Virus record (IMG/VR): IMGVR_UViG_2609459854_000004 | Span: 1-16,896 of that record | DNA from: a virus | Lineage: Duplodnaviria > Heunggongvirae > Uroviricota > Caudoviricetes | DNA: 16,896 nt | Direction: 5' to 3' (one strand) | Notes under the pieces: generated by a model | What the model was told of the DNA's origin: nothing | Database searches by the model: none | The model's input: the letters and a program-made list of their open reading frames with translations, nothing else | Position numbers and translations under genes: made by a program | Shown here: positions 1,060 to 15,980 of the stretch, piece after piece | How positions within the stretch are numbered: position 1 is the first letter of the stretch | How the letters are laid out: each line of letters starts with the position of its first letter

Positions 1060-2754
1060 ATGAGTACCACAACACGAAAATTTAAAACCATTATCACTGA
1101 TACTGGTGCCAAAAAATTAGCTCAGGCAGCCGCGCCAGATGGTAATCCTGTCCGCCTGACTCACATGGCCGTGGGCGACGGTGGCGGCACGTTGCCCACA
1201 CCAGACAGTAAGCAGACCCGTCTGGTGCATGAGGTGTGGCGACATACTGTTAATCGCGTCATCCTGGACGCAACACATCAGAACCGCATTATTGCGGAGC
1301 TGGTTATTCCTCCTGAAACGGGCGGATTCTGGATCCGGGAAATTGGTGTATTTGATGAGCACGGCGATTTAATCGCGGTGGGCAATACTGCCGAAAGTTA
1401 CAAACCAACCGTTGCCGAGGGGTCCGGACGTGCACAAACATTTCGCACCATTCTGACCGTATCCAGCACTGCCACCGTGGCGCTTACCGTGGATAACACC
1501 ATGGTGATGGCCACAGTGGATTACGTGAATGACAAACTGAAAGAACATGAACAGTCACGACGTCACCCGGACGCCTCGCTGACCGCAAAAGGCTTTGTTC
1601 AACTCAGTAGCGCCACTAACAGCACGTCTGAAGCACTGGCCGCAACGCCGAAAGCGGTCAAGACAGCCTATGACCTTGCTAACGGGAAATATACCGCACA
1701 GGACGCCACGACGGCACGAAAAGGAATAGTCCAGCTCAGTAGCGTCACTAACAGTGATTCTGAAACGCTTGCCGCGACTCCGAAAGCGGTGAAAGCCGCT
1801 AATGACAATGCAAACGGGCGTGTGCCCTCTGGACGTAAGGTTAATGGCAAATCACTAGCCAATGATGTCAATGTTACATCGCAGGATATTTTTAACGACC
1901 AGAGTATTGAGATTGGTGCAAATCAGAATCTGGATAATTACAAAACACCGGGGCTGTACCATCAGCCATTGAATGCCAATACAAGCGCAGCGCTGAAATA
2001 CCCGGAGAATTTTGCGGGTACACTGGTTGTGCTTAAAAATGCCGGGATAACACAGATTTACTATGTGTATGACACATCCAGAAGCTATACCCGCAGCCAG
2101 TACTCAACGGGTGACTGGACACCATGGACGCCACAAGATTCATTTCCGGTAGGTGCGGCGATACCGTGGCCTTCTGATTCAGTGCCTACAGGCTATACCG
2201 TTATGCAGGGGCAGACTTTTGATAAAACAGTCTACCCCCTGCTTGCAGTCGCTTATCCGTCTGGTGTGATCCCTGATATGCGTGGCTGGACGATTAAGGG
2301 CAAACCCGCCAGTGGTCGGGCCGTATTATCTCAGGAACAGGACGGCATTAAATCACACTCCCACAGTGCCAGCGCGTCCAGTACGGACTTGGGGACAAAA
2401 ACCACATCATCATTTGACTACGGCACCAAGACGTCCAGTTCATTTAACCATGGCACTAAAACCACGAATAGCGCCGGGGATCATTCACACAATATTCCTG
2501 TTGGCAACACTGGCGCTGGTAATGGTGTTTCGGCTGGTTATAACTCAGGGCTTGGCACTGGAAAAACAAGTAACGCAGGGGGGCACTCTCACACAGTAAA
2601 TATTGGCGCACACACTCATACGGTAGGAATTGGCGCACACACACACTCCGTTGCGATAGGTTCACACGGGCATACCATCACCGTTAACGCTACGGGTAAC
2701 GCAGAAAACACCGTAAAAAACATCGCATTTAACTATATTGTGAGGCTTGCATGA
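1060..2754 (+). CDS. H: Tail fibre protein (P2 gpH-like), with tandem fibre repeats and a His-rich HxH tip
   Basis: 564 aa ORF starting 2 nt after the I stop. The N-terminus resembles the conserved P2 H N-terminal domain. Two tandem repeats (…QLSS[A/V][14 protein letters not shown]…) and a C-terminal run of HxH motifs (DHSHN, GHSHT, AHTHT, AHTHS, SHGHT) are typical of phage distal fibre tips. Confidence 0.9.
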
Positions 2755-3653
2755 TTACGCTCATTCTTTCTGCACCAGTAACAGAAATGGCTGAAGCATT
2801 TAAGCAGGTATTTGCAAATGCAGATAGTGTGAATATTGTCGGAAAGCCATTTGAAACAATCAGAGAATTTGACTGCATGGTAAGTGCGGCAAATAGTTTC
2901 GGCTTGATGGATGGTGGCGTTGATGCCGCCATTACCGCATTCTTCGGTACTCAGTTACAGTCCCGCGTTCAGAATCATATTCTTCGTGAATATCTCGGCG
3001 AACAGCCTGTAGGTTCTGCATTTGTCATTGAAACGGGGCATAATCATCACCCCTGGCTGGTACATGCGCCAACAATGCGTGTTCCGTTGACAATTGACGG
3101 AACAGACGCTGTATATAACGCAACCTGGGCCGCTCTGCTTGCCATCTTTCAGCACAATAAAAACGCAACGACAGACATGAAAATAAAAACAGTGGTATTC
3201 CCTGCAATGGGGGCCGGATGTGGTCAGGTGCCGTTTGAAAGTGTTGCCCGACAGATGAAGCAGGCATGGGATAACTTTAATAAAAAAACAGAATCAATTA
3301 ACTGGGAATACGCACAATCTCGCCAGTCGGCAGTATTTGGCACATATGCATACTGTCCGGGTAATTCCGTTTGCCGTTATGCGGATACTAAATATATTGG
3401 ATGCGGCGATTATCGGACGTGTTGCTCTCGTTCCGGGCAACTCTGTATTAACCCTGAACATCAGGCTGATGATGTACTGATACAACATCAGGCTAATAAC
3501 CGTTTTCGCCCTGGTTCGCATATACACCGGATTAATCCAGAAAATCCCGTAGGTAATGTCACCTCTGGCGCACATAGCCACGGAAGTAGCATCGTTATTG
3601 GTACTCCTACCCATACGCTCAATAAACAATATTCTGTCTCTGATATTAAGTAG
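2751..3653 (+). CDS. Macro-domain-like protein with tail-fibre-tip-like (HxH) C-terminal region; function unknown
   Basis: ATG 2751 overlaps the H stop (ATGA) with GAGG 5 nt upstream. The N-terminal ~170 aa carry macro-domain-like motifs (…[18 protein letters not shown]… and …[14 protein letters not shown]…). The C-terminal ~100 aa are Cys-rich then HxH-containing (SHIHR, AHSHG, PTHT) like the H tip. Assignment is by motif only. Confidence 0.6.
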
Positions 3654-3661
3654 AGGTGAAC

Positions 3662-4240
3662 ATGGATTTCAGAATGAGTGAACAATCACGGACCATAAAA
3701 ATTTATAACCTGCTGGCCGGAACTAATGAATTTATTGGGGAAGGTGATGCATACATTCCACCTCATACAGGTCTGCCTGCAAACAGTACCGATATTGCAC
3801 CACCAGATATTCCGGCAGGCTTCGTGGCTGTTTTCAACAGTGATGAGGCATCGTGGCATCTCGTTGAAGACCATCGGGGTAAAACGGTTTATGACGTGGC
3901 ATCAGGGGACGCGTTATTTATTTCTGAACTCGGTCCGTTACCGGAAAATGTTACCTGGTTGTCGCCGGATGGAGAGTGTCAGAAGTGGAACGGCACATCC
4001 TGGGTGAAAGATGCAGAAGCAGAAAAACTGTTTCGGGTACGGGAGGCAGAAGAAACAAAAAACAGCCTGATGCAGGTAGCCAGTGAGCATATTGCGCCAC
4101 TTCAGGATGCCGTAGATTTGGATATTGCGACGGAGGAAGAGGCATCGTTACTGGCTGCATGGAAGACATATAGGGTATTGTTGAATCGTGTTGATACAAC
4201 AGTAGCAGCGGATGTTGAGTGGCCAGTCGCCCCGCAATAA
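3662..4240 (+). CDS. tfa: Tail fibre assembly protein (lambda Tfa-like chaperone)
   Basis: Translation from ATG 3662 ([54 protein letters not shown]…[33 protein letters not shown]…) is near-identical to lambda Tfa as I recall it. GAGG sits 5 nt upstream. The ORF track begins at an upstream in-frame GTG (3656). Confidence 0.9.
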
Positions 4241-4244
4241 AAAG

Positions 4245-4277
4245 AAAAAGCCATCGACAGAAATATCGATGGCTTTA
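4245..4277. terminator. Bidirectional rho-independent terminator-like hairpin between tfa and the acetyltransferase gene
   Basis: AAAAA-GCCATCGA-cagaaata-TCGATGGC-TTT: a perfect 8-bp stem flanked by an A-run on one side and T's on the other, sitting between two convergent genes. Confidence 0.55.
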
Positions 4278-4283
4278 TGTACT

Positions 4284-4856
4284 CTATTTATACAATACAA
4301 CACCACTCTTTTTAGTTATATATGTGCAGTTTGATGGTATATCTTTATTTATAAAAGACATTGCACCTATTTTTACATTATCCCCAATTTTACGTGACAA
4401 TCCAATGATGCAACAATTAGCTCCGATATCAACGTTACTACCAATTTTCACTCTTGAACCAGGCATGTCACCATCTATCTGTCCAATGGTAGTATTCTGT
4501 CGTAATACCAGATTTTCACCCGCATCAACAGCAAAATGAACAACAATTCCAGCATGATGGGGAATTGTTAACCCTTTTCCAATATTTGCTCCCAATCCTA
4601 TTTCACAACCAAATTTGTTAATTATTTTACTGTTTAACTTTTTGGCTGCTTTCTTATGTAATTTATTACCATTAATATACATTTCGTTAGCCAACCGCCA
4701 CCAGAAAAGGAAATTCCGGTTACGCTGCTTTTTCTCTCTTAAAAGCCTCCAGATATCCATACGTTTCCGCCGAATTACTTCATGTTTCCAGAAGTTTTTT
4801 AAATTAGTAGAGTTCCCAAATAAAACAAAGTGAATTGCCATTAAGTAAGACAGCAC
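4284..4856 (-). CDS. Hexapeptide-repeat acyl/acetyltransferase (serine acetyltransferase CysE / WcaB-like left-handed beta-helix); prophage cargo
   Basis: C-terminal half shows hexapeptide repeats and a CysE-like core (…GCEIGLGANIGKGLTIPHHAGIVVHFAVDAGENLVL…IGSNVDIGANCCIIG…IGDNVKIGAMSFINKDIPSN…). Preferred start is GTG at 4856 with AAGGAG 6 nt upstream; the ORF track extends to 4889. The region is strongly AT-rich compared with the flanking tail genes. Confidence 0.65.
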   Translation of the reverse strand: MLSYLMAIHFVLFGNSTNLKNFWKHEVIRRKRMDIWRLLREKKQRNRNFLFWWRLANEMYINGNKLHKKAAKKLNSKIINKFGCEIGLGANIGKGLTIPHHAGIVVHFAVDAGENLVLRQNTTIGQIDGDMPGSRVKIGSNVDIGANCCIIGLSRKIGDNVKIGAMSFINKDIPSNCTYITKKSGVVLYK

Positions 4857-4907
4857 GAAAATCTCCTTAATTATTATTTCAGACCACACATGTTATAAGG
4901 TTAAGAG

Positions 4908-4936
4908 ATTATAAAATCCTGTTATTTGTTATTCAA
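4908..4936 (-). promoter_or_regulatory. Candidate sigma70 promoter for the acetyltransferase gene (TTGAAT-17 bp-TATAAT on the - strand)
   Basis: Reverse complement of 4908-4913 is TATAAT; reverse complement of 4931-4936 is TTGAAT; 17-bp spacer; about 50 nt upstream of the proposed start. Sequence match only. Confidence 0.4.
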
Positions 4937-5012
4937 AAACAATTTTCTGAGAAGGACATACAACAGCAAGTCGCCAGTCACCTTCATCAGGAAATTGGCG
5001 ACATACGTTAAA

Positions 5013-10745: not shown

Positions 10746-11855
10746 ATGACTGATACCACCATGCAATTGCTCAGTCAGGGCACAGACCCCGTGAAAATGC
10801 CGGATTTTGATATTCTCGCGGAGGGTAAAACGCTGTCCGGCGTGGCAGAGCGCCTGATGAACCTGTCACTGACCGACAACCGGGGATTTGAAGCAGACCA
10901 GCTCACCATCACGCTGGATGATGCGGATGGTCAGTTGCAGCTACCGCCACGGGGCGCGCGCCTGACGGTTCTCATTGGCTGGAAAGGAGAACCGCTGACA
11001 GAAAAAGGCACTTACATCGTTGATGAAATCGCTCACGAGGGACCGCCGGACAGACTGACTGTTTCAGCCAGAAGCGCAGATTTTCGGGATGAATTTAACG
11101 TTAAACGTGAGGTGTCATGGCATGATGTGACCGTTGAGCGTGTGGTATCCGCCATCGCTCATCGGTACGGCCTGAAACCGCAAATCAGCGAAATGCTGAT
11201 GGATATCGAAATCGACCACGCCGACCAGACCGAAGAAAGCGACATGTCCTTCCTTACGCGCATGGCGGAAATGCTGGGCGCAATCACCACAGTAAAAAGC
11301 GGTAATCTGTTATTCATCATGCCAGGCGGTGGCGTGAACGCACAGGGCCAGCCGTTGCCATCGTTCGCCATCACTCGCAGCAGTGGCGATCGCCATCAGT
11401 TCCGCATTGCTGACCGCGAAGCGTATACGGGGGTACGCGCTTACTGGCTTGATCTTAATTACGGGAAAAAGAAAAAAGTCAGCGTGAAACGCCGCAAACC
11501 GAAAAAAGAGAAAAGCAGCAGCCGTGAAGGTGACTATATGGAAGGTTCGGAAGGCAACGTGTTTGTGTTACGCAAAACTTATCAGAACGAACAGGCAGCA
11601 AGACGCGCAGCGGCGGCAAAGTGGCAGCAGCTACAACGCAGAGCCGCATCATTCTCCATCACACTGGCACGTGGACGCGCAGAACTCTACCCCGAAATGC
11701 ATGGCACGGTGACAGGCTTCAAAAGTGACATCGACAATCAGGACTGGATTATTGCAAAAGCCGAGCACACCATTGATAACAGCGGCTTTACCACGCAGCT
11801 TGAGCTTGAGGCAAAAATCCCAGAGTGGATAGCAGAAACAGAGCGAGCAACATAG
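10746..11855 (+). CDS. D: Tail protein D (P2 gpD-like, late-control gene D family)
   Basis: ATG at 10746 with AGGGAGGG upstream. Motifs …DQLTITLDDADGQLQLPPRGARLTV.IGWKGEPL…SARSADFRDEFN…REVSWHD…SDMSFLTRMAEM…AITRSSGDRHQFRIADREAYTGV…, plus a Lys-rich linker, resemble P2 gpD. Confidence 0.85.
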   Translation: MTDTTMQLLSQGTDPVKMPDFDILAEGKTLSGVAERLMNLSLTDNRGFEADQLTITLDDADGQLQLPPRGARLTVLIGWKGEPLTEKGTYIVDEIAHEGPPDRLTVSARSADFRDEFNVKREVSWHDVTVERVVSAIAHRYGLKPQISEMLMDIEIDHADQTEESDMSFLTRMAEMLGAITTVKSGNLLFIMPGGGVNAQGQPLPSFAITRSSGDRHQFRIADREAYTGVRAYWLDLNYGKKKKVSVKRRKPKKEKSSSREGDYMEGSEGNVFVLRKTYQNEQAARRAAAAKWQQLQRRAASFSITLARGRAELYPEMHGTVTGFKSDIDNQDWIIAKAEHTIDNSGFTTQLELEAKIPEWIAETERAT

Positions 11856-11932
11856 ATACATTAGTTCATGCATAAGCTGGCCAGCTTACTACAAAAAGCT
11901 AGAATAAATTTGGCAATCCGCACAAATTAACA

Positions 11933-11951
11933 GGAGGCAGCTCAGGCCTCC
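11933..11951. terminator. Hairpin between convergent D and thsB (GGAGGC-agctcag-GCCTCC)
   Basis: 6-bp stem with 7-nt loop directly downstream of the thsB stop and about 80 nt downstream of the D stop. No strong T-tract, so terminator function is tentative. Confidence 0.3.
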
Positions 11952-11960
11952 GTGGTTGAA

Positions 11961-12428
11961 TTATTGTTTAATGGCGTTTTCTATCCATGTCGCCAAATTG
12001 TTCTTGATATCGCTATAAGCGTCGTTAAAGTTAGGTTCATATACGAGTGGTTTAATTACTCGATCGCCTCGCTTAAATGTAAATTGGTCGAAAGGATTCG
12101 GTCCTTTTGTCCCATAGCCGTTACGAGGGCATTTCAGTCGATGAATATAAATACCCACCACAGCCTTACCCTCTTTCCAGGCTCTTTCGATCTCATACTT
12201 GACCCATGGGCGATTAGCCGTTTGACTCCCGATCAGTACTACTAAGCAGGATTTGCCATTTAAGCTCTGATTAATCCAATTCTTCACGCCCTGCTCAGTT
12301 CGTTTAATTTGTTCCCAAGTATTTGGGCTAACCGGTTCATCCCCCTCCAGCACTCCCATGTTACGAATCTGCTGTACCCGCATAACATCGTTATCAAAGT
12401 GAAAGCTGTAAAATACCTTACGTTTCAT
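11961..12428 (-). CDS. thsB: Thoeris ThsB-like TIR-domain protein (DUF1863-type TIR)
   Basis: 155 aa; MKRKVFYSFHFDNDV…LVVLIGSQTANRPWVKYEIERAW…KGPNPFDQF matches the ThsB/TIR-like signature (KxVFxSFHxxD…LIGSQT…W…YEI). Strong AGGAGG 6 nt upstream of the ATG; 2-bp gap to the thsA stop, so likely co-translated. AT-rich island. Confidence 0.7.
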   Translation of the reverse strand: MKRKVFYSFHFDNDVMRVQQIRNMGVLEGDEPVSPNTWEQIKRTEQGVKNWINQSLNGKSCLVVLIGSQTANRPWVKYEIERAWKEGKAVVGIYIHRLKCPRNGYGTKGPNPFDQFTFKRGDRVIKPLVYEPNFNDAYSDIKNNLATWIENAIKQ

Positions 12429-12430
12429 AT

Positions 12431-13876
12431 CTAACCTCCTAGTTTCTTTAAAATTTCTAAAACTTTCATTTCGATATTTGCCCGATTAGCAGAGAGATCT
12501 GCAAGCTGAGCAACTTCCTTTTCCAACCAAGGGTACCGGACAAAATGTTTACTTGGATCCGTCAGCATCTCGTCAGCTAGTTCCTTGGCCATATAACCAG
12601 TGACGCCAAGTGGAAGCACGACAACCCCTGTTTCCTGAGCAATTTGAAACTCCCTTCGGACCCCATCAGCATTAACGATTCGACCATCATGGAGTTTATT
12701 CCCAAAAAGGAATATAGCGATTCCAGAAAGACCAATCATACGCTGCCGATATTCGTCCCATAGCTCGCTCAGGGCTTTATCGTTTGATGAGTGTTGAGGG
12801 AATGGCCGCATGATAAGTTGCTCTTCTGAGTACTTATCAGGCTTAGAATAAATGGCTTCAAGAGCTCCGTTGATGACCGCACTACCAATACCCCATCCAA
12901 ACCCATTGACAACTCGATAGCCATTCTTCACCAAAGATGACGAAAGTATGTGTACAAAGTTTAGTGCTTCCTGTTTGTCCCAAGCGCCATACTCTTCTGC
13001 ACTACCAGATATAAATATGGTCTTCTTGAGGAAGCGACTCTCAATCTCTTTCAATATAAGTGGAATATCATCGTACTCGTTTACTAATACAGCCTGAATG
13101 CCAAAACGGAGCAAATCGCGAATATGATGTTCTTGCCTACGCTGCCTATACATAGCGCCAGCTTCATCTTCATTTCCTTGCGGCAGAGAGGGTTCCTTAC
13201 GAAGAAAGCAGTAGTGTCTACGACGATGCTTCTCCGGAACATGCAATCGGCTCAATATGTAATCAAGATTAGGATCAGTAAAACTGAAGCCAATAAATAA
13301 GAATGTCTTAGAAATCAAATCTCCACTCAATGCTGTAACAAACCCCTCATGGGTCTTGTAGTACTGCTCATACTGAGCTTTATAAAGTATGGCGTCACCT
13401 GGCGAGCTAACATCACCATGCATTTTGTAAACAACAGCATCTCGTTTAGGACGAGTGGAAATAAGATCATCGGTTCTGCGTTTAATATCTGCGACACGGT
13501 AGTTTTCTTTGAGACTATCTTCAATCAAAGTGTCATAGTTGGTTGTCCAATAAGTTCTAATGGGTAGTCTAGCAAGGATTTTATGGGCTTCGGAAGGTTC
13601 CGCTTGCTCCGAGAATTCCTCTAGGATTTTTCTAGCTAAACCAGTTGAGCTGTTGTTCTTGTTGACATGGTATTGTGCAACCGAAATTAAGTCGTGCTCT
13701 AGCTCAACAGAAAGGCCTAATTCTTCAGCAATTTCACGCAGCAGTTCACTCCAATTAACGAAGCCGCTGGTTCTAGATAGGCCCGCACCAGCAAAAACGG
13801 CGGCAACCCCTTCTTCGAGATCCTTCACATAAGTCCTGATAAAAGCTTCAACTTCAGCCGAAAACTGAACACTCAT
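12431..13876 (-). CDS. thsA: Thoeris ThsA-like protein, N-terminal SIR2 (NADase) domain plus C-terminal SLOG/STALD sensor domain
   Basis: SIR2 motifs AAVFAGAGLSRTSGF…, …RTYWTTNYDTLIE… (catalytic Asn) and …AVVYKMHGDV… (catalytic His), then …TFLFIGFSFTDPNLDYIL…. C-terminal SLOG-like motifs …IFISGSAEEYGAW…NGFGWGIGSAVINGALE…IFLFGN…. Preferred start is ATG 13876 (MSVQF…); the ORF track gives TTG at 13897. Confidence 0.7.
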   Translation of the reverse strand: MSVQFSAEVEAFIRTYVKDLEEGVAAVFAGAGLSRTSGFVNWSELLREIAEELGLSVELEHDLISVAQYHVNKNNSSTGLARKILEEFSEQAEPSEAHKILARLPIRTYWTTNYDTLIEDSLKENYRVADIKRRTDDLISTRPKRDAVVYKMHGDVSSPGDAILYKAQYEQYYKTHEGFVTALSGDLISKTFLFIGFSFTDPNLDYILSRLHVPEKHRRRHYCFLRKEPSLPQGNEDEAGAMYRQRRQEHHIRDLLRFGIQAVLVNEYDDIPLILKEIESRFLKKTIFISGSAEEYGAWDKQEALNFVHILSSSLVKNGYRVVNGFGWGIGSAVINGALEAIYSKPDKYSEEQLIMRPFPQHSSNDKALSELWDEYRQRMIGLSGIAIFLFGNKLHDGRIVNADGVRREFQIAQETGVVVLPLGVTGYMAKELADEMLTDPSKHFVRYPWLEKEVAQLADLSANRANIEMKVLEILKKLGG

Positions 13877-14289
13877 ATTTTTAGACAATCCGGTCAAAAG
13901 ATAGACATAAACTTCTTACCACAAACTAACCTTTGTAGTTCTATACACCGCTTTTACGCTGTGCTTTAGTATCCAAATGGATTCATTACTACTGGGGTCA
14001 GTACCTATTGAGTAAGTAGGTAGAAAGCCATTACTAGCTCCAATACTCGCTAAGTATATGAGGCAATTAGGTGGTATTTTCAAGTTCACCGAGCCTGATA
14101 CAGGGCCATAGGAATAAATAGTCACATTTTCGTAGCTCTTTTCCACTATTGGTAGTTAAATAATTACTTTCACTTTATCGCTCAAAGCGTACTCTCAGGT
14201 TTATTGCTTTTTAGTTACATAAACCGTCAGTTAGAGTTTGTACCTGTACAACCTAGAATAACGGTAGCAACACGTTTGGGGAGGTCGCA

Positions 14290-14550
14290 ATGTTCCGTTG
14301 TCCACTTTGTGGTGCATCTGCCCGTATCCGCACCAGTCGTCCGGAAAATGATTCAAACACTGTACGACAAAAGTATTACCAGTGTAATAACTTAGAATGC
14401 GGCGTATGCTTCTCAACACTGGAAGCTTTTCATAAGTTCACATCAAAACACACCTCCTGCGTTCACTCTTCAGGGGATATTCCGTGGCATGAGCTGCCAG
14501 CTTCACACAAGGGAAACAATCAGATGAGTTTGCCTTTACCTCAGAATTAA
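14290..14550 (+). CDS. ogr: Ogr/Delta-family zinc-finger late transcription activator
   Basis: MFRCPLCGASARIRTSR…YYQCNNLECGVCF: a C-x2-C…C-x4-C zinc finger with Ogr-like spacing; GGGGAGG upstream. At 86 aa it is longer than P2 Ogr by a C-terminal extension. Confidence 0.8.
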   Translation: MFRCPLCGASARIRTSRPENDSNTVRQKYYQCNNLECGVCFSTLEAFHKFTSKHTSCVHSSGDIPWHELPASHKGNNQMSLPLPQN

Positions 14551-14638: not shown

Positions 14639-14875
14639 ATGTGGAAAGGCCCCGGAAAAACATCTCTGTTTAACCGAGGCCCTAACCGCATTACCTTGAC
14701 AAGTGAAAGGTTAGCGCCTCTCCGGAAAAGGAGCAAGTGCTATGTCGCAAAAATCGCTTACGGCCATCACGTTCTGCGTGACGGCAATCCTCATCATCTG
14801 GATGCTGCACGGTTCGCTGTGCGAAATACGGATGAGCTTCTGGGGAGCGGAGTTTGCGGCGTTCTTACAGTGTAA
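14639..14875 (+). CDS. mok: mok-like overlapping reading frame (modulator of killing) of a hok/sok-type locus
   Basis: 78-aa ORF in a different frame that almost completely overlaps the hok-like ORF and ends 7 nt before its stop. This is the arrangement characteristic of mok/hok. No independent sequence support. Confidence 0.35.
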   Translation: MWKGPGKTSLFNRGPNRITLTSERLAPLRKRSKCYVAKIAYGHHVLRDGNPHHLDAARFAVRNTDELLGSGVCGVLTV

Positions 14876-14882
14876 GCAGTAA
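14742..14882 (+). CDS. hok: Hok/Gef-family type I toxin (small membrane peptide)
   Basis: 46-aa ORF MSQKSLTAITFCVTAILIIWMLHGSLCEIRMSFWGAEFAAFLQCKQ: single TM helix followed by the Hok/Gef signature SLCEIR…E.AAF. Not in the supplied ORF track because it is under 60 aa. Confidence 0.7.
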   Translation: MSQKSLTAITFCVTAILIIWMLHGSLCEIRMSFWGAEFAAFLQCKQ

Positions 14883-15071: not shown

Positions 15072-15353
15072 TTACTCAGCATTCTCCTGCTTCCATTGCC
15101 GGATCATTTCATCGGTAACATCACTCTCATAACATACCACGTCATACCCTCCAGTACGGCTATATGCACTGCGTCCACCACATCTACTACCATTCCTTGC
15201 ATGATTATAAGGACACGCACAATTGCCTGGATAAGATTCAATGGATTCTTTAATTATTTCTTTCTTGATCTGAGCATCTGACTTTCCTTTTGCTGCATAC
15301 CCACTAAAAGATACCAAACAAAGGCAGATTGCCATTAATAAACCACATCGCAT
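15072..15353 (-). CDS. Small secreted Cys-containing protein of unknown function (predicted signal peptide)
   Basis: From ATG 15353: MRCGLLMAICLCLVSFSGYAAKG… has a typical Sec signal peptide (AxA-like YAA cleavage motif), then a 70-aa mature region with 4 Cys (…GNCACPYNHARNGSRCGG…VVCY…). The ORF-track N-terminal extension to 15467 precedes the signal peptide and is less plausible. AT-rich islet. Confidence 0.4.
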   Translation of the reverse strand: MRCGLLMAICLCLVSFSGYAAKGKSDAQIKKEIIKESIESYPGNCACPYNHARNGSRCGGRSAYSRTGGYDVVCYESDVTDEMIRQWKQENAE

Positions 15354-15812
15354 ACCGATACACTCTATTACTAACCAATCATAGCCCACATCATAAAATC
15401 GAGATGAGGAGTACAACACCTTTAACAAGAAGGTGCCATCACGATAATATGTCGTGCAATTCATCAAAAAAAAGATCTATATCAAAGAGATAGAGTTATT
15501 ATCAGTGCTGCAGACATCAGCATTCGAGGCAGCAGAAAAACAGTTAATCTAACGAATTTGTATTTTCTCAGGATGTTGTCAGATTAAAAAAGATAGATTA
15601 GCGCAGACACCTTTTGGCGGGTGGTAGGAGGAAAAATGAAGTTGAGTGGGAAGATCCCAGAAAAAATTTTGATTTAACCAAGGCCCTAGTTCAACATGCG
15701 AAATACAGATTAGTTGCAGGAGAGTTCTGCTTCACGCTTAGAGCTTCAACAGACGTGCACTATCATTGTTTCTGCATATCGCCACATCATCGCCACTTTA
15801 CCGCCATTGCAC

Positions 15813-15893: not shown

Positions 15894-15980
15894 TGGTACC
15901 CGGAGCGGGACTTGAACCCGCACAGCGCGAACGCCGAGGGATTTTAAATCCCTTGTGTCTACCGATTCCACCATCCGGGC
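15894..15980 (-). tRNA. leuZ: tRNA-Leu (anticodon TAA)
   Basis: Reverse complement reads GCCCGGATGGTGGAATCGGTAGACACAAGGGATTTAAAATCCCTCGGCGTTCGCGCTGTGCGGGTTCAAGTCCCGCTCCGGGTACCA: 87 nt with long variable arm, anticodon loop TT-TAA-AA, encoded CCA. Confidence 0.9.

Follow-up and report, generated by a model that had tools for sequence, protein, structure and literature searches.

An operon on a P88-like prophage of Escherichia coli, very probably intact type I Thoeris, located between tail gene D and ogr

The two genes thsA and thsB, located in the window (the whole 16,896-nucleotide stretch of viral DNA analysed here), very probably constitute an intact canonical type I Thoeris operon, a non-essential cargo of a temperate P88-like E. 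coli phage. Judged by the 100% identity of its proteins to deposited E. coli proteins, the system is classified as Thoeris proper, beyond the merely 'Thoeris-like' module proposed in an earlier sequence-only reading. It is a known system whose protein pair has been crystallised before, and as a canonical type I representative it adds little to Thoeris biology. The analysis rather provides the crystallised E. coli ThsA/ThsB pair with a genomic context, as cargo of a P88-like temperate phage, and reveals an operon that is rare in intact form and commonly an IS-truncated relic, as well as a productive variable slot in the D-ogr interval of P88-like phages.

Both open reading frames (ORFs) were recovered on the minus strand, directly adjoining each other as had been read from the sequence, with a gap of exactly 2 bp (AT, 12429-12430) between them. 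The operon comprises the following features:

12431..13876, minus strand: thsA, SIR2-SLOG effector of 481 aa (ORF; start ATG at 13876, stop TAG at 12431-12433)
13175..13555, minus strand: SIR2 NADase domain of ThsA, residues 108-234 (Pfam PF13289 SIR2_2, E=1.8e-28)
13538-13540 and 13418-13420, minus strand: predicted catalytic Asn113 and His153 of ThsA (aligned to N112 and H152 of BcThsA, the Bacillus cereus homologue)
12443..13069, minus strand: SLOG/STALD signal-binding domain of ThsA, residues 270-478 (Pfam PF18185 STALD, E=9.3e-78)
11961..12428, minus strand: thsB, TIR-like signal synthase/sensor of 155 aa (ORF with ATG start; Pfam and PADLOC)
12135-12413, minus strand: TIR-like domain of ThsB, residues 6-98 (Pfam PF08937 ThsB_TIR, E=1e-23)
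12192-12194, minus strand: predicted catalytic Glu79 of ThsB (aligned to BcThsB E85 in WV(K/R)YEI)
12435..12440, minus strand: AGGAGG Shine-Dalgarno of thsB within the 3' end of thsA (direct sequence reading)
11933..11951, minus strand: terminator-like GC hairpin, 10 bp past the thsB stop (consensus scan; weak evidence)
13877..14169, minus strand: AT-rich 293 bp within the cassette upstream of thsA, the presumed thsAB promoter region

The start of thsA was taken as the ATG at 13876, on which RefSeq and the PDB construct agree; the raw ORF reaches a TTG at 13897. The 2-bp gap implies co-transcription and translational coupling of thsA and thsB. The hairpin past thsB has a predicted fold of -10.7 kcal/mol (z=-1.9), and the G + C content of 13877-14289 is 0.38. 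A 76-aa ORF at 13916-14146, between thsA and ogr, had no family match and was treated as spurious.

All three profile families expected of a type I system (SIR2_2, STALD, and ThsB_TIR) were matched, in agreement with the sequence-only reading, and both proteins were matched over their full length by PADLOC models (ThsA1, E=6.4e-203; ThsB1, E=3e-70). The TTNYD and KMHGD motifs ascribed to the upstream gene start at ThsA residues 111 and 151, and the SLOG-like domain claimed for its C-terminus corresponds to the STALD match, which spans 210 of the 211 profile positions. ThsB, whose N-terminus reads MKRKVFYSFHFDND, had been described as a short TIR-like protein with a conserved Glu, a description with which both the PF08937 match and the alignment of E79 to BcThsB E85 agree. 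Nine of ten BcThsA residues that were compared are identical in ThsA, including the two SIR2 catalytic residues and seven of the eight residues of the 3'cADPR pocket (G291, S292, Q361, R377, K394, G405, and E409 in the alignment); the sole mismatch is W328, which replaces L326 of BcThsA.

The pairing of the two genes is widely conserved. A ThsB-like gene was found beside the ThsA homologue on the same strand in 77 of 80 loci from species representatives of many phyla, and directly downstream of it in 62 of them. Identical copies of the ThsA protein were found on 340 contigs, in every case with ThsB alongside. An assignment to type II Thoeris was rejected, as ThsA matches SIR2_2 and STALD only and has no Macro or transmembrane domain, and the best PADLOC models were ThsA1 and ThsB1. 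Type II Thoeris (e.g., the E. coli system of PMC11204291) shares the relay from a TIR sensor via a nucleotide signal to a partner effector, but its effector is a Macro-domain or transmembrane ThsA, whereas SIR2 and SLOG domains are combined in the ThsA studied here. DSR2 was also rejected since the NCBIfam Dsr2 model scored 54 bits against a cut-off of 1400 bits and matched the SIR2 region only, as were other stand-alone SIR2 defence proteins, because the PADLOC matches to Dsr and LmuA models were confined to ThsA residues ~10-234.

ThsA is 100% identical over 481 aa to PDB entry 8WC0 ('NAD(+) hydrolase ThsA'), which PMC12700824 cites as the ThsA of E. coli, and ThsB is 100% identical over 155 residues to the TIR partner in 8WCF. 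There is thus no difference at the protein level between the deposits, which lack genomic context, and the products of thsAB. No publication on 8WC0, 8WCF, or the RefSeq accessions of ThsA and ThsB was found in the literature searched. The functionally characterised ThsA of B. cereus MSX-D12 (6LHX/8BTO) is 49.8% identical to ThsA (E=6e-138 for 6LHX), and the B. cereus system shares with thsAB the two-gene order, the SIR2-SLOG/TIR-like architecture, the catalytic Asn/His pair, the TIR Glu, and most of the SLOG pocket residues. Its BcThsB (6LHY/9B7D) is far more diverged, with ~120 residues aligned to ThsB (E=6e-21), which is ~40 aa shorter. Unlike the B. cereus system, thsAB is prophage-borne and resides in a Gram-negative host.

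By analogy with characterised systems, anti-phage and NADase activities are inferred for thsAB. The presumed signal chemistry, NAD depletion, and phage resistance are modelled on the systems of B. cereus and S. equi and follow the published Thoeris mechanism (PMC9122126; 10.1101/2022.05.07.491051; PMC11204291). In the lysogen, thsA and thsB would be co-transcribed from a cassette-internal promoter, antisense to the phage late genes; because the consensus scan detected no sigma-70-like promoter at ≥9/12 on the minus strand upstream of thsA, expression in the lysogen is an assumption. Upon infection by another phage, ThsB would use Glu79 to make from NAD+ a cyclic ADP-ribose isomer, most probably 3'cADPR, which would be bound by the C-terminal SLOG pocket of ThsA (S292, R377, K394, and E409). 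Signal binding would then activate the N-terminal SIR2 NADase (Asn113 and His153), and the resulting depletion of NAD+ may leave the cell unable to support phage growth, so that clonal lysogens and the resident prophage would be protected by abortive infection.

Two other readings of the locus were weighed against a functional type I system of the B. cereus kind. That thsAB is structurally intact but silent or decaying cargo, which confers no defence in this strain, is considered very unlikely, although the promoter scan upstream of thsA is in its favour and the operon is mostly found broken. Among 5426 complete E. coli genomes, intact thsAB was found in five; these belong to 70 complete genomes with the thsAB allele, in 65 of which IS1, an IS3-family element, or a group II intron has cut the copy short (IS-truncated remnants number ~60). 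Such a prevalence of broken copies is compatible with a cost of the operon or with weak selection. However, the truncated copies have common breakpoints and near-identical sequences, which suggests few clonally inherited IS events and not repeated decay. Moreover, both ORFs in the window are full length, the catalytic and compared ligand-binding residues are intact save for the substitution of L326 by W328, and ThsB is the constant companion of the identical ThsA on the 340 contigs. Truncated copies that consist of thsB and a 3' piece of thsA could be mistaken for a novel chimera in which SLOG is fused to a new effector, but this interpretation was rejected as they are IS and intron truncations of one and the same prophage, all at a single tRNA-Leu site.

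The single pocket substitution also bears on the other reading, a Thoeris-family system whose signal or output departs from the B. cereus paradigm by using 2'cADPR or another ADPR derivative, or by acting without NAD depletion. Trp328 occupies the position of the adenine-stacking Leu326 of BcThsA, a residue that contacts the adenine-linked ribose and tells 2' from 3'cADPR, and the isomer preference of ThsA could therefore be shifted. In addition, ThsB is short (155 vs 193 aa), its alignment with BcThsB is limited to the N-terminal ~120 residues, and one type II Thoeris system has been reported to cause growth arrest without NAD depletion (10.64898/2026.01.22.701046). Nevertheless, ThsA matches BcThsA exactly at the SIR2 catalytic pair and at the residues in contact with the diphosphate and ribose, and the top PADLOC models for both genes are those of type I, which renders this reading extremely improbable.

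The window is a 100% match to E. coli H3, and the prophage to which it belongs is a P88-like member of the Peduoviridae (Xuanwuvirus/Gemsvirus), not P2 proper. The framing of the host as a P2-like phage in the sequence-only reading holds at the level of the P2 family but not for P2 itself: in P2 the genes from FI to D form one operon, whereas here FI-FII-E-T-U lie on the strand opposite D. The cargo and its surroundings are delimited as follows:

10746..11855, plus strand: tail gene D, left flank, 369 aa (Pfam PF05954 Phage_GPD; 369 aa in public assemblies)
11857..14249, no strand assigned: cargo island of 2.4 kb with a G + C content of 0.422, missing from empty D-ogr loci
14290..14550, plus strand: ogr late-gene activator, right flank, 86 aa (Pfam PF04606 Ogr_Delta, E=5e-14)
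11853..11921, plus strand: left copy of a ~90-bp Z-region-type inverted repeat, starting from the D stop codon (nhmmer E=5.8e-6 and 7.8e-7)
14170..14255, minus strand: right copy of this repeat, with its end 35 bp short of the ogr ATG (nhmmer E=3.7e-5 and 4.9e-6)

The profile matches to both flanking genes confirmed the placement between D and ogr that had been read from the sequence. In blastn comparisons, homology to the empty locus and to P88 stops at 11856 and restarts at 14250. The contrast between an AT-rich island and GC-rich tail genes was likewise reproduced, with a G + C content of 0.422 for the island as opposed to 0.533 in D, 0.538 in the sheath gene, and 0.549 across the tail operon. 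P88 and most sister prophages lack the thsAB island, and no sequenced free phage with the operon was found in the phage collection (megablast yielded no matches, and the best tblastn match was 32% identical).

Comparison of the D-ogr interval across related prophages, which the sequence-only reading had suggested, revealed a variable slot that measures 42 bp from the D stop to the ogr ATG in its empty state and is split in ~40% of carrier genomes. At least ten alternative cargos were found, with single-gene cargos in sister prophages. Other occupants include GmrSD-like, PIN, DUF3800, SEC-C, ComF-like, and ParA-like proteins, a weak HEPN match, and two unknowns. None of these occupants was matched by a full-length PADLOC model, which makes them candidate defence genes.

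The cargo is found at neither of the classical P2 junctions, i.e., old/tin between A and Q, and Z/fun between G and FI. The old/tin hotspot between gpA and gpQ (Rousset et al., 2022; PMC9122126) is likewise a prophage-borne locus of swappable anti-phage cargo, but differs in its genomic position, and an inverted-repeat bracket was not found reported for it in the literature examined. The claim that thsAB lies outside the P2 cargo positions known to the sequence-only reading thus applies to the D-ogr junction itself but not to the kind of slot, which by its flanking repeats is the same as that of Z/fun.

A repeat profile was built for nhmmer from D-ogr flanks, with sequences of the window excluded. 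It matched both flanks of fun(Z) in P2 and both annotated inverted repeats of P2-EC67 (E=5e-15 and 5.5e-10), and gave zero matches in 930 kb of control loci. GenBank record AJ512685 annotates the ~90-bp element as the inverted repeats to the left and right of the P2 Z-region, a cargo slot reportedly treated by Nilsson, Karlsson and Haggard-Ljungquist in 2004 (Mol Biol Evol 21:1-13; cited in PMC9122126). The two copies in the window are diverged and the weakest of the set (E ~1e-5 to 1e-6), and their pairing within the window alone was not significant (z=0.5). The assignment of a bracket consequently draws on the profile search and the sister loci, among which the GmrSD-type left flank matches the reverse complement of the right copy (z=5.5). 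On this evidence, the thsAB cassette is considered to lie between inverted copies of the Z-region-type ~90-bp element. The Z/fun slot of P2, likewise in a phage of the P2 family, also has cargo that is AT-rich and non-essential enclosed by an inverted pair of this element, whereas it is situated between G and FI and the thsAB slot lies between D and ogr in another phage genus with an inverted tail operon. The 8-bp sequence AACTTAGA, which overlaps the repeat terminus, is present as a single copy in empty sites and flanks occupied sites on either side, a pattern that deletion between short repeats would explain as well as target duplication would.

The same element also brackets cargo in an unrelated integrase-proximal slot, in the yfdPQR prophage at yjjG/tRNA-Leu, for which no empty state was found among 698 genomes. 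Unrelated cargos of one or two genes are located between ~90-bp repeats in at least three prophage slots (G-FI, D-ogr, and integrase-proximal), and a comparison of 19 proteins revealed no cargo common to the integrase-proximal and D-ogr slots. The repeats might be portable recombination sites or non-autonomous cassette ends that shift defence genes between unrelated mobile elements, a tentative and rather doubtful interpretation; no recombinase for the repeat-bracketed cassette was identified. If the inverted-repeat bracket does serve as an active substrate for recombination, fast swaps of defence cassettes among prophage hotspots would have a concrete mechanism; how such exchange proceeds was explicitly left open in a 2026 study of P2/P4 hotspots. 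The element matched no Rfam family and gave no significant fold, and was accordingly rejected as a known or structured RNA; it was also rejected as a high-copy MITE since it occurs in one or two places per genome. Solo copies of the element adjoin accessory genes at chromosomal sites.

The thsA and thsB genes, which encode a SIR2-SLOG effector and a TIR-like protein, respectively, are adjacent minus-strand genes separated by a gap of 2 bp and are flanked by tail gene D and ogr, an arrangement that the sequence-only reading had proposed:

10746–11855, plus strand: D, left flank (PF05954)
11961–12428, minus strand: thsB, ORF of 155 aa
12431–13876, minus strand: thsA, ORF from the ATG, 481 aa
14290–14550, plus strand: ogr, right flank (PF04606)

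Delimited mechanically, the thsA ORF extends to a TTG at 13897 (488 aa); the start is placed at the ATG in both RefSeq and the PDB construct. The thsA stop codon (TAG) is followed after 2 bp by the thsB ATG, and the Shine-Dalgarno sequence of thsB (AGGAGG) lies within the final thsA codons. A consensus scan detected a terminator-like hairpin 3' of thsB; in the 293 bp preceding thsA it showed no clear promoter. The motifs TTNYD, KMHGD, and KVFYSFHFDND quoted in the initial reading were found, and the cargo island (11857–14249), described there as AT-rich against GC-rich tail genes, has a G + C content of 0.422 versus 0.533 in D and 0.549 in the tail operon. The initial observation was confirmed in all particulars.

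Profile and PADLOC searches, which had been suggested as checks of a type I Thoeris architecture (SIR2-SLOG plus TIR), yielded matches in all expected families. ThsA matched the Pfam families SIR2_2 (E = 1.8e-28) and, over nearly the whole profile, STALD (“Sir2- and TIR-associating SLOG family”; E = 9.3e-78), and ThsB matched PF08937 (ThsB_TIR; E = 1e-23). The top PADLOC model was ThsA1 for ThsA (E = 6.4e-203), covering residues 12–486 of the 488-aa ORF, and ThsB1 for ThsB, matched over its full length with E = 3e-70. The PADLOC models for LmuA, DSR, and pAgo-associated SIR2 proteins matched ThsA weakly and in the SIR2 part alone, and its sole NCBIfam match, Dsr2, was far below threshold. Both proteins are identical to solved structures, ThsA to PDB 8WC0 (“NAD(+) hydrolase ThsA”; 100% over all 481 residues), which is named as Escherichia coli ThsA in PMC12700824, and ThsB to PDB 8WCF (100% over all 155 residues). 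The second-best ThsA structures were 6LHX and 8BTO from Bacillus cereus MSX-D12 (E ~1e-137, 49.8% identity over 436 aligned residues), with S. equi ThsA (7UXT) also among the next-best matches; after 8WCF, the best ThsB structures were B. cereus 6LHY and 9B7D (E = 6e-21).

The published list of contacts between B. cereus ThsA (BcThsA) and 3'cADPR (10.1101/2022.05.07.491051) was transferred to the window ThsA by alignment. The catalytic pair N112/H152 is N113/H153 in the window protein, and the pocket residues G289, S290, Q359, R371, K388, G399, and E403 are identical at positions 291, 292, 361, 377, 394, 405, and 409, whereas L326 of BcThsA, the sole differing mapped residue, is replaced by W328. 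In ThsB, Glu79 lies within WVKYEI, which aligns with the BcThsB motif WVRYEI that includes E85. The role of BcThsB E85 was reportedly addressed by Ofir et al. in 2021.

Operon architecture and residues fit the type I Thoeris pathway as published (PMC11204291; PMC9122126; 10.1101/2022.05.07.491051), in which the TIR protein ThsB produces a cyclic ADP-ribose isomer that acts through the SLOG domain of ThsA to cause NAD+ loss. By analogy, the window ThsB would sense infection and make a cyclic ADP-ribose isomer from NAD+, and binding of this isomer to the SLOG domain of ThsA would be followed by NAD+ depletion through the SIR2 domain and by abortive infection. A literature search found no functional publication on this thsAB allele. 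The canonical type I Thoeris reading is very probably correct; the main residual doubts are whether the operon is expressed in the lysogen and which isomer is used, the latter because W328 replaces L326. The system is already known, residue for residue, and is neither a new member nor a variant; as a Thoeris finding it has little discovery value; only the cargo slot and its inverted-repeat bracket have some.

Pairing of the two genes is conserved. Of 80 genomes with a ThsA relative (47–80% identical), each representing one species and together spanning many phyla, 77 carry a ThsB-like gene on the same strand, directly downstream in 62 of them. The allele itself (at least 99% identity) was found in 70 complete E. 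coli genomes and is whole in only five. Most non-intact carriers have either thsB with 580 bp from the 3' end of thsA, which is broken by an IS3-family element and a group II intron, or other IS truncations; all of these copies lie at the same tRNA-Leu site in eroded prophages. Examples are the truncated copy of E. coli DA33133 (L003, 8091–9187), shared with ~60 other complete genomes, and the truncated-allele locus of NCTC9040 (L004). The remnant consists of an intact thsB beside a 208-aa SLOG-only ORF in an eroded prophage, next to a type I restriction island. Identical ThsA occurs on 340 contigs, with the same prophage end as context in 10 of the 10 places listed, and identical ThsB on at least 1000. 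Proteins at least 90% identical were found in Salmonella, Leclercia, Serratia, Rahnella, Enterobacter, and Shewanella, and no record in the phage collection contained this operon.

The sequence-only reading had placed the cargo outside the two classical P2 cargo positions, which is correct as to position, the cargo lying between D and ogr. In the empty state, which occurs in many prophages as well as in P88 and phage Chuche, 42 bp separate the D stop from the ogr ATG; relative to this state the window contains 2393 additional bases (11857–14249). Junction sequences of D and ogr are present in ~1200 of 5426 complete E. coli genomes and contiguous in 720; in the other ~40%, cargo or insertion sequences lie between them. 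Evenly spaced sampling of the junction matches with follow-up annotation, including sister prophages and phage 500465-2 (loci L005–L008 and L099–L105), revealed at least 10 alternative occupants, on either strand and with a G + C content of 0.33–0.43, among them:

SEC-C-motif protein, most frequent occupant in the evenly spaced sample
GmrSD_N protein
PIN_4 protein
DUF3800 protein
ComF-like gene plus a second gene
ParA-like ATPase
HEPN-RiboL-PSP protein (weak match), also in phage 500465-2
two proteins without family match

Since ~40% of the junctions are split and at least 10 alternative occupants exist, the D–ogr interval is a true hotspot. None of these occupants had a full-length PADLOC model match, and they are therefore candidate defence genes. 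Besides the A–Q slot and the Z/fun slot (G–FI), the hotspot literature searched reports a “third hotspot between a tail protein and CI” and several minor P2 slots; it does not name D–ogr as a slot.

All occupied loci compared share a conserved sequence immediately 3' of the D stop and immediately 5' of ogr, and the left and right flanks are reverse complements of each other. Within loci, permissive local alignment gave inverted-match z values of 10.5 (SEC-C), 6.1 (ComF), and 4.1 (GmrSD), but only 0.5 for the Thoeris locus, with same-strand controls below 1. An nhmmer profile that combined six left flanks with the reverse complements of two right flanks, and included no window sequence, detected both copies in the window and had no match in 930 kb of unrelated loci:

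11853–11921, plus strand: left repeat copy (E = 6e-6)
14170–14255, minus strand: right repeat copy (E = 4e-5)

The 8-mer AACTTAGA, which overlaps the repeat terminus, occurs once at empty sites and on both sides at occupied sites. This pattern resembles a target duplication, and deletion between short repeats is equally compatible with it. The ~90-bp element matched no Rfam family, and its predicted RNA folds were not significant.

Sensitive BLAST with one repeat copy found one to two places per E. coli genome. A second slot with repeats belongs to the yfdPQR prophage at yjjG/tRNA-Leu and is situated next to its integrase, between the early genes and the integrase, where three of four different cargos checked had an inverted pair and one had a single detectable copy. 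These cargos (L108, L111–L113) are single genes of 413, 515, 271, and 342 aa without Pfam match; an empty state of this slot was never seen in 698 E. coli genomes. Solo copies were found near nadR, adjoining a GNAT gene, and within a tRNA-Ser island, where the copy follows a pair of dynamin-like genes. Run on the phage collection, the repeat query matched P2 and AJ512685 (“P2-EC67 proviral Z-region,” 1.5 kb), in the latter at the annotated “right inverted repeat.” The inverted pairs are located as follows:

L006, 2751–2842 and 4452–4542: D–ogr interval
L099, 1554–1643 and 3123–3210: D–ogr interval
L108, 3352–3430 and 5000–5079: integrase-proximal slot
L111, 2530–2614 and 4421–4504: integrase-proximal slot
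L113, 3002–3054 and 4437–4503: integrase-proximal slot
L115 (phage P2), 842–931 and 3002–3086: around fun(Z)
L114 (P2-EC67), 26–116 and 1254–1338: Z-region

Because the profile matches both annotated P2-EC67 repeats (E = 5e-15 and 5.5e-10) and, in P2, the two flanks of fun(Z) (E = 7e-11 and 6e-8), the D–ogr slot is, judged by sequence, a Z/fun-type cassette slot at another genomic position. The repeats were evidently already described with the Z-region records, AJ512685 annotating the ~90-bp element as left and right inverted repeats, and this precedent is said to date from 2004. They are unmentioned in the recent hotspot literature searched, and a 2026 hotspot study counts the way in which elements exchange defence genes among the unresolved questions. 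Inverted pairs surround unrelated cargos in three prophage slots, namely D–ogr (P88-like), G–FI (P2), and integrase-proximal (yfdPQR), and no cargo common to the D–ogr and integrase-proximal slots was found in a small sample. A tentative idea, which we consider rather unlikely, is that these repeats act as portable recombination sites by which defence cassettes travel between unrelated prophage slots.

E. coli strain H3 (NZ_CP010167) matches the window at 100% identity; the prophage adjoins tRNA-Leu/Cys/Gly upstream of pgsA. Its tail genes are 94–98% identical to phage P88 and relatives (Xuanwuvirus, Gemsvirus; Peduoviridae), and the prophage is P88-like and not P2 proper; in P88-like phages U-T-E-FII-FI lie on the strand opposite to D, whereas in P2 the F operon runs from FI through D. 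Beyond ogr, a hok/gef toxin gene (14742–14882, plus strand) and an AT-rich ORF without Pfam match (15072–15467, minus strand; phrog_27544) precede the prophage end at tRNA-Leu (15894–15980). This ogr-to-att stretch varies, containing com/methyltransferase genes in phage Chuche and zinc-ribbon and TagO-like genes in phage 500465-2. The most AT-rich island of the window (4241–5012, G + C 0.34) lies between the tail-fibre assembly gene and gene U, lacks the 90-bp repeat bracket, and encodes a hexapeptide-repeat acetyltransferase (4284–4889, minus strand; annotated as serine acetyltransferase, phrog_2154), whose probable role is in lysogenic conversion; the corresponding site of P88 holds a DNA invertase and alternative fibre genes. 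Between the tail-fibre and tail-fibre assembly genes, with overlapping stop and start codons, lies the gene for a 300-aa Macro-domain protein (2751–3653, plus strand; PF01661, E = 1e-18; also matching phrog_2613 and a “tail protein” phrog). This gene is missing at the corresponding place in P88, and its product might be a fibre-associated esterase or have some ADP-ribose-related function. An Rfam IS009 small-RNA match (4005–4203, plus strand), which exceeds the gathering score with 191 bits, falls within the tail-fibre assembly gene, in its 3' part.
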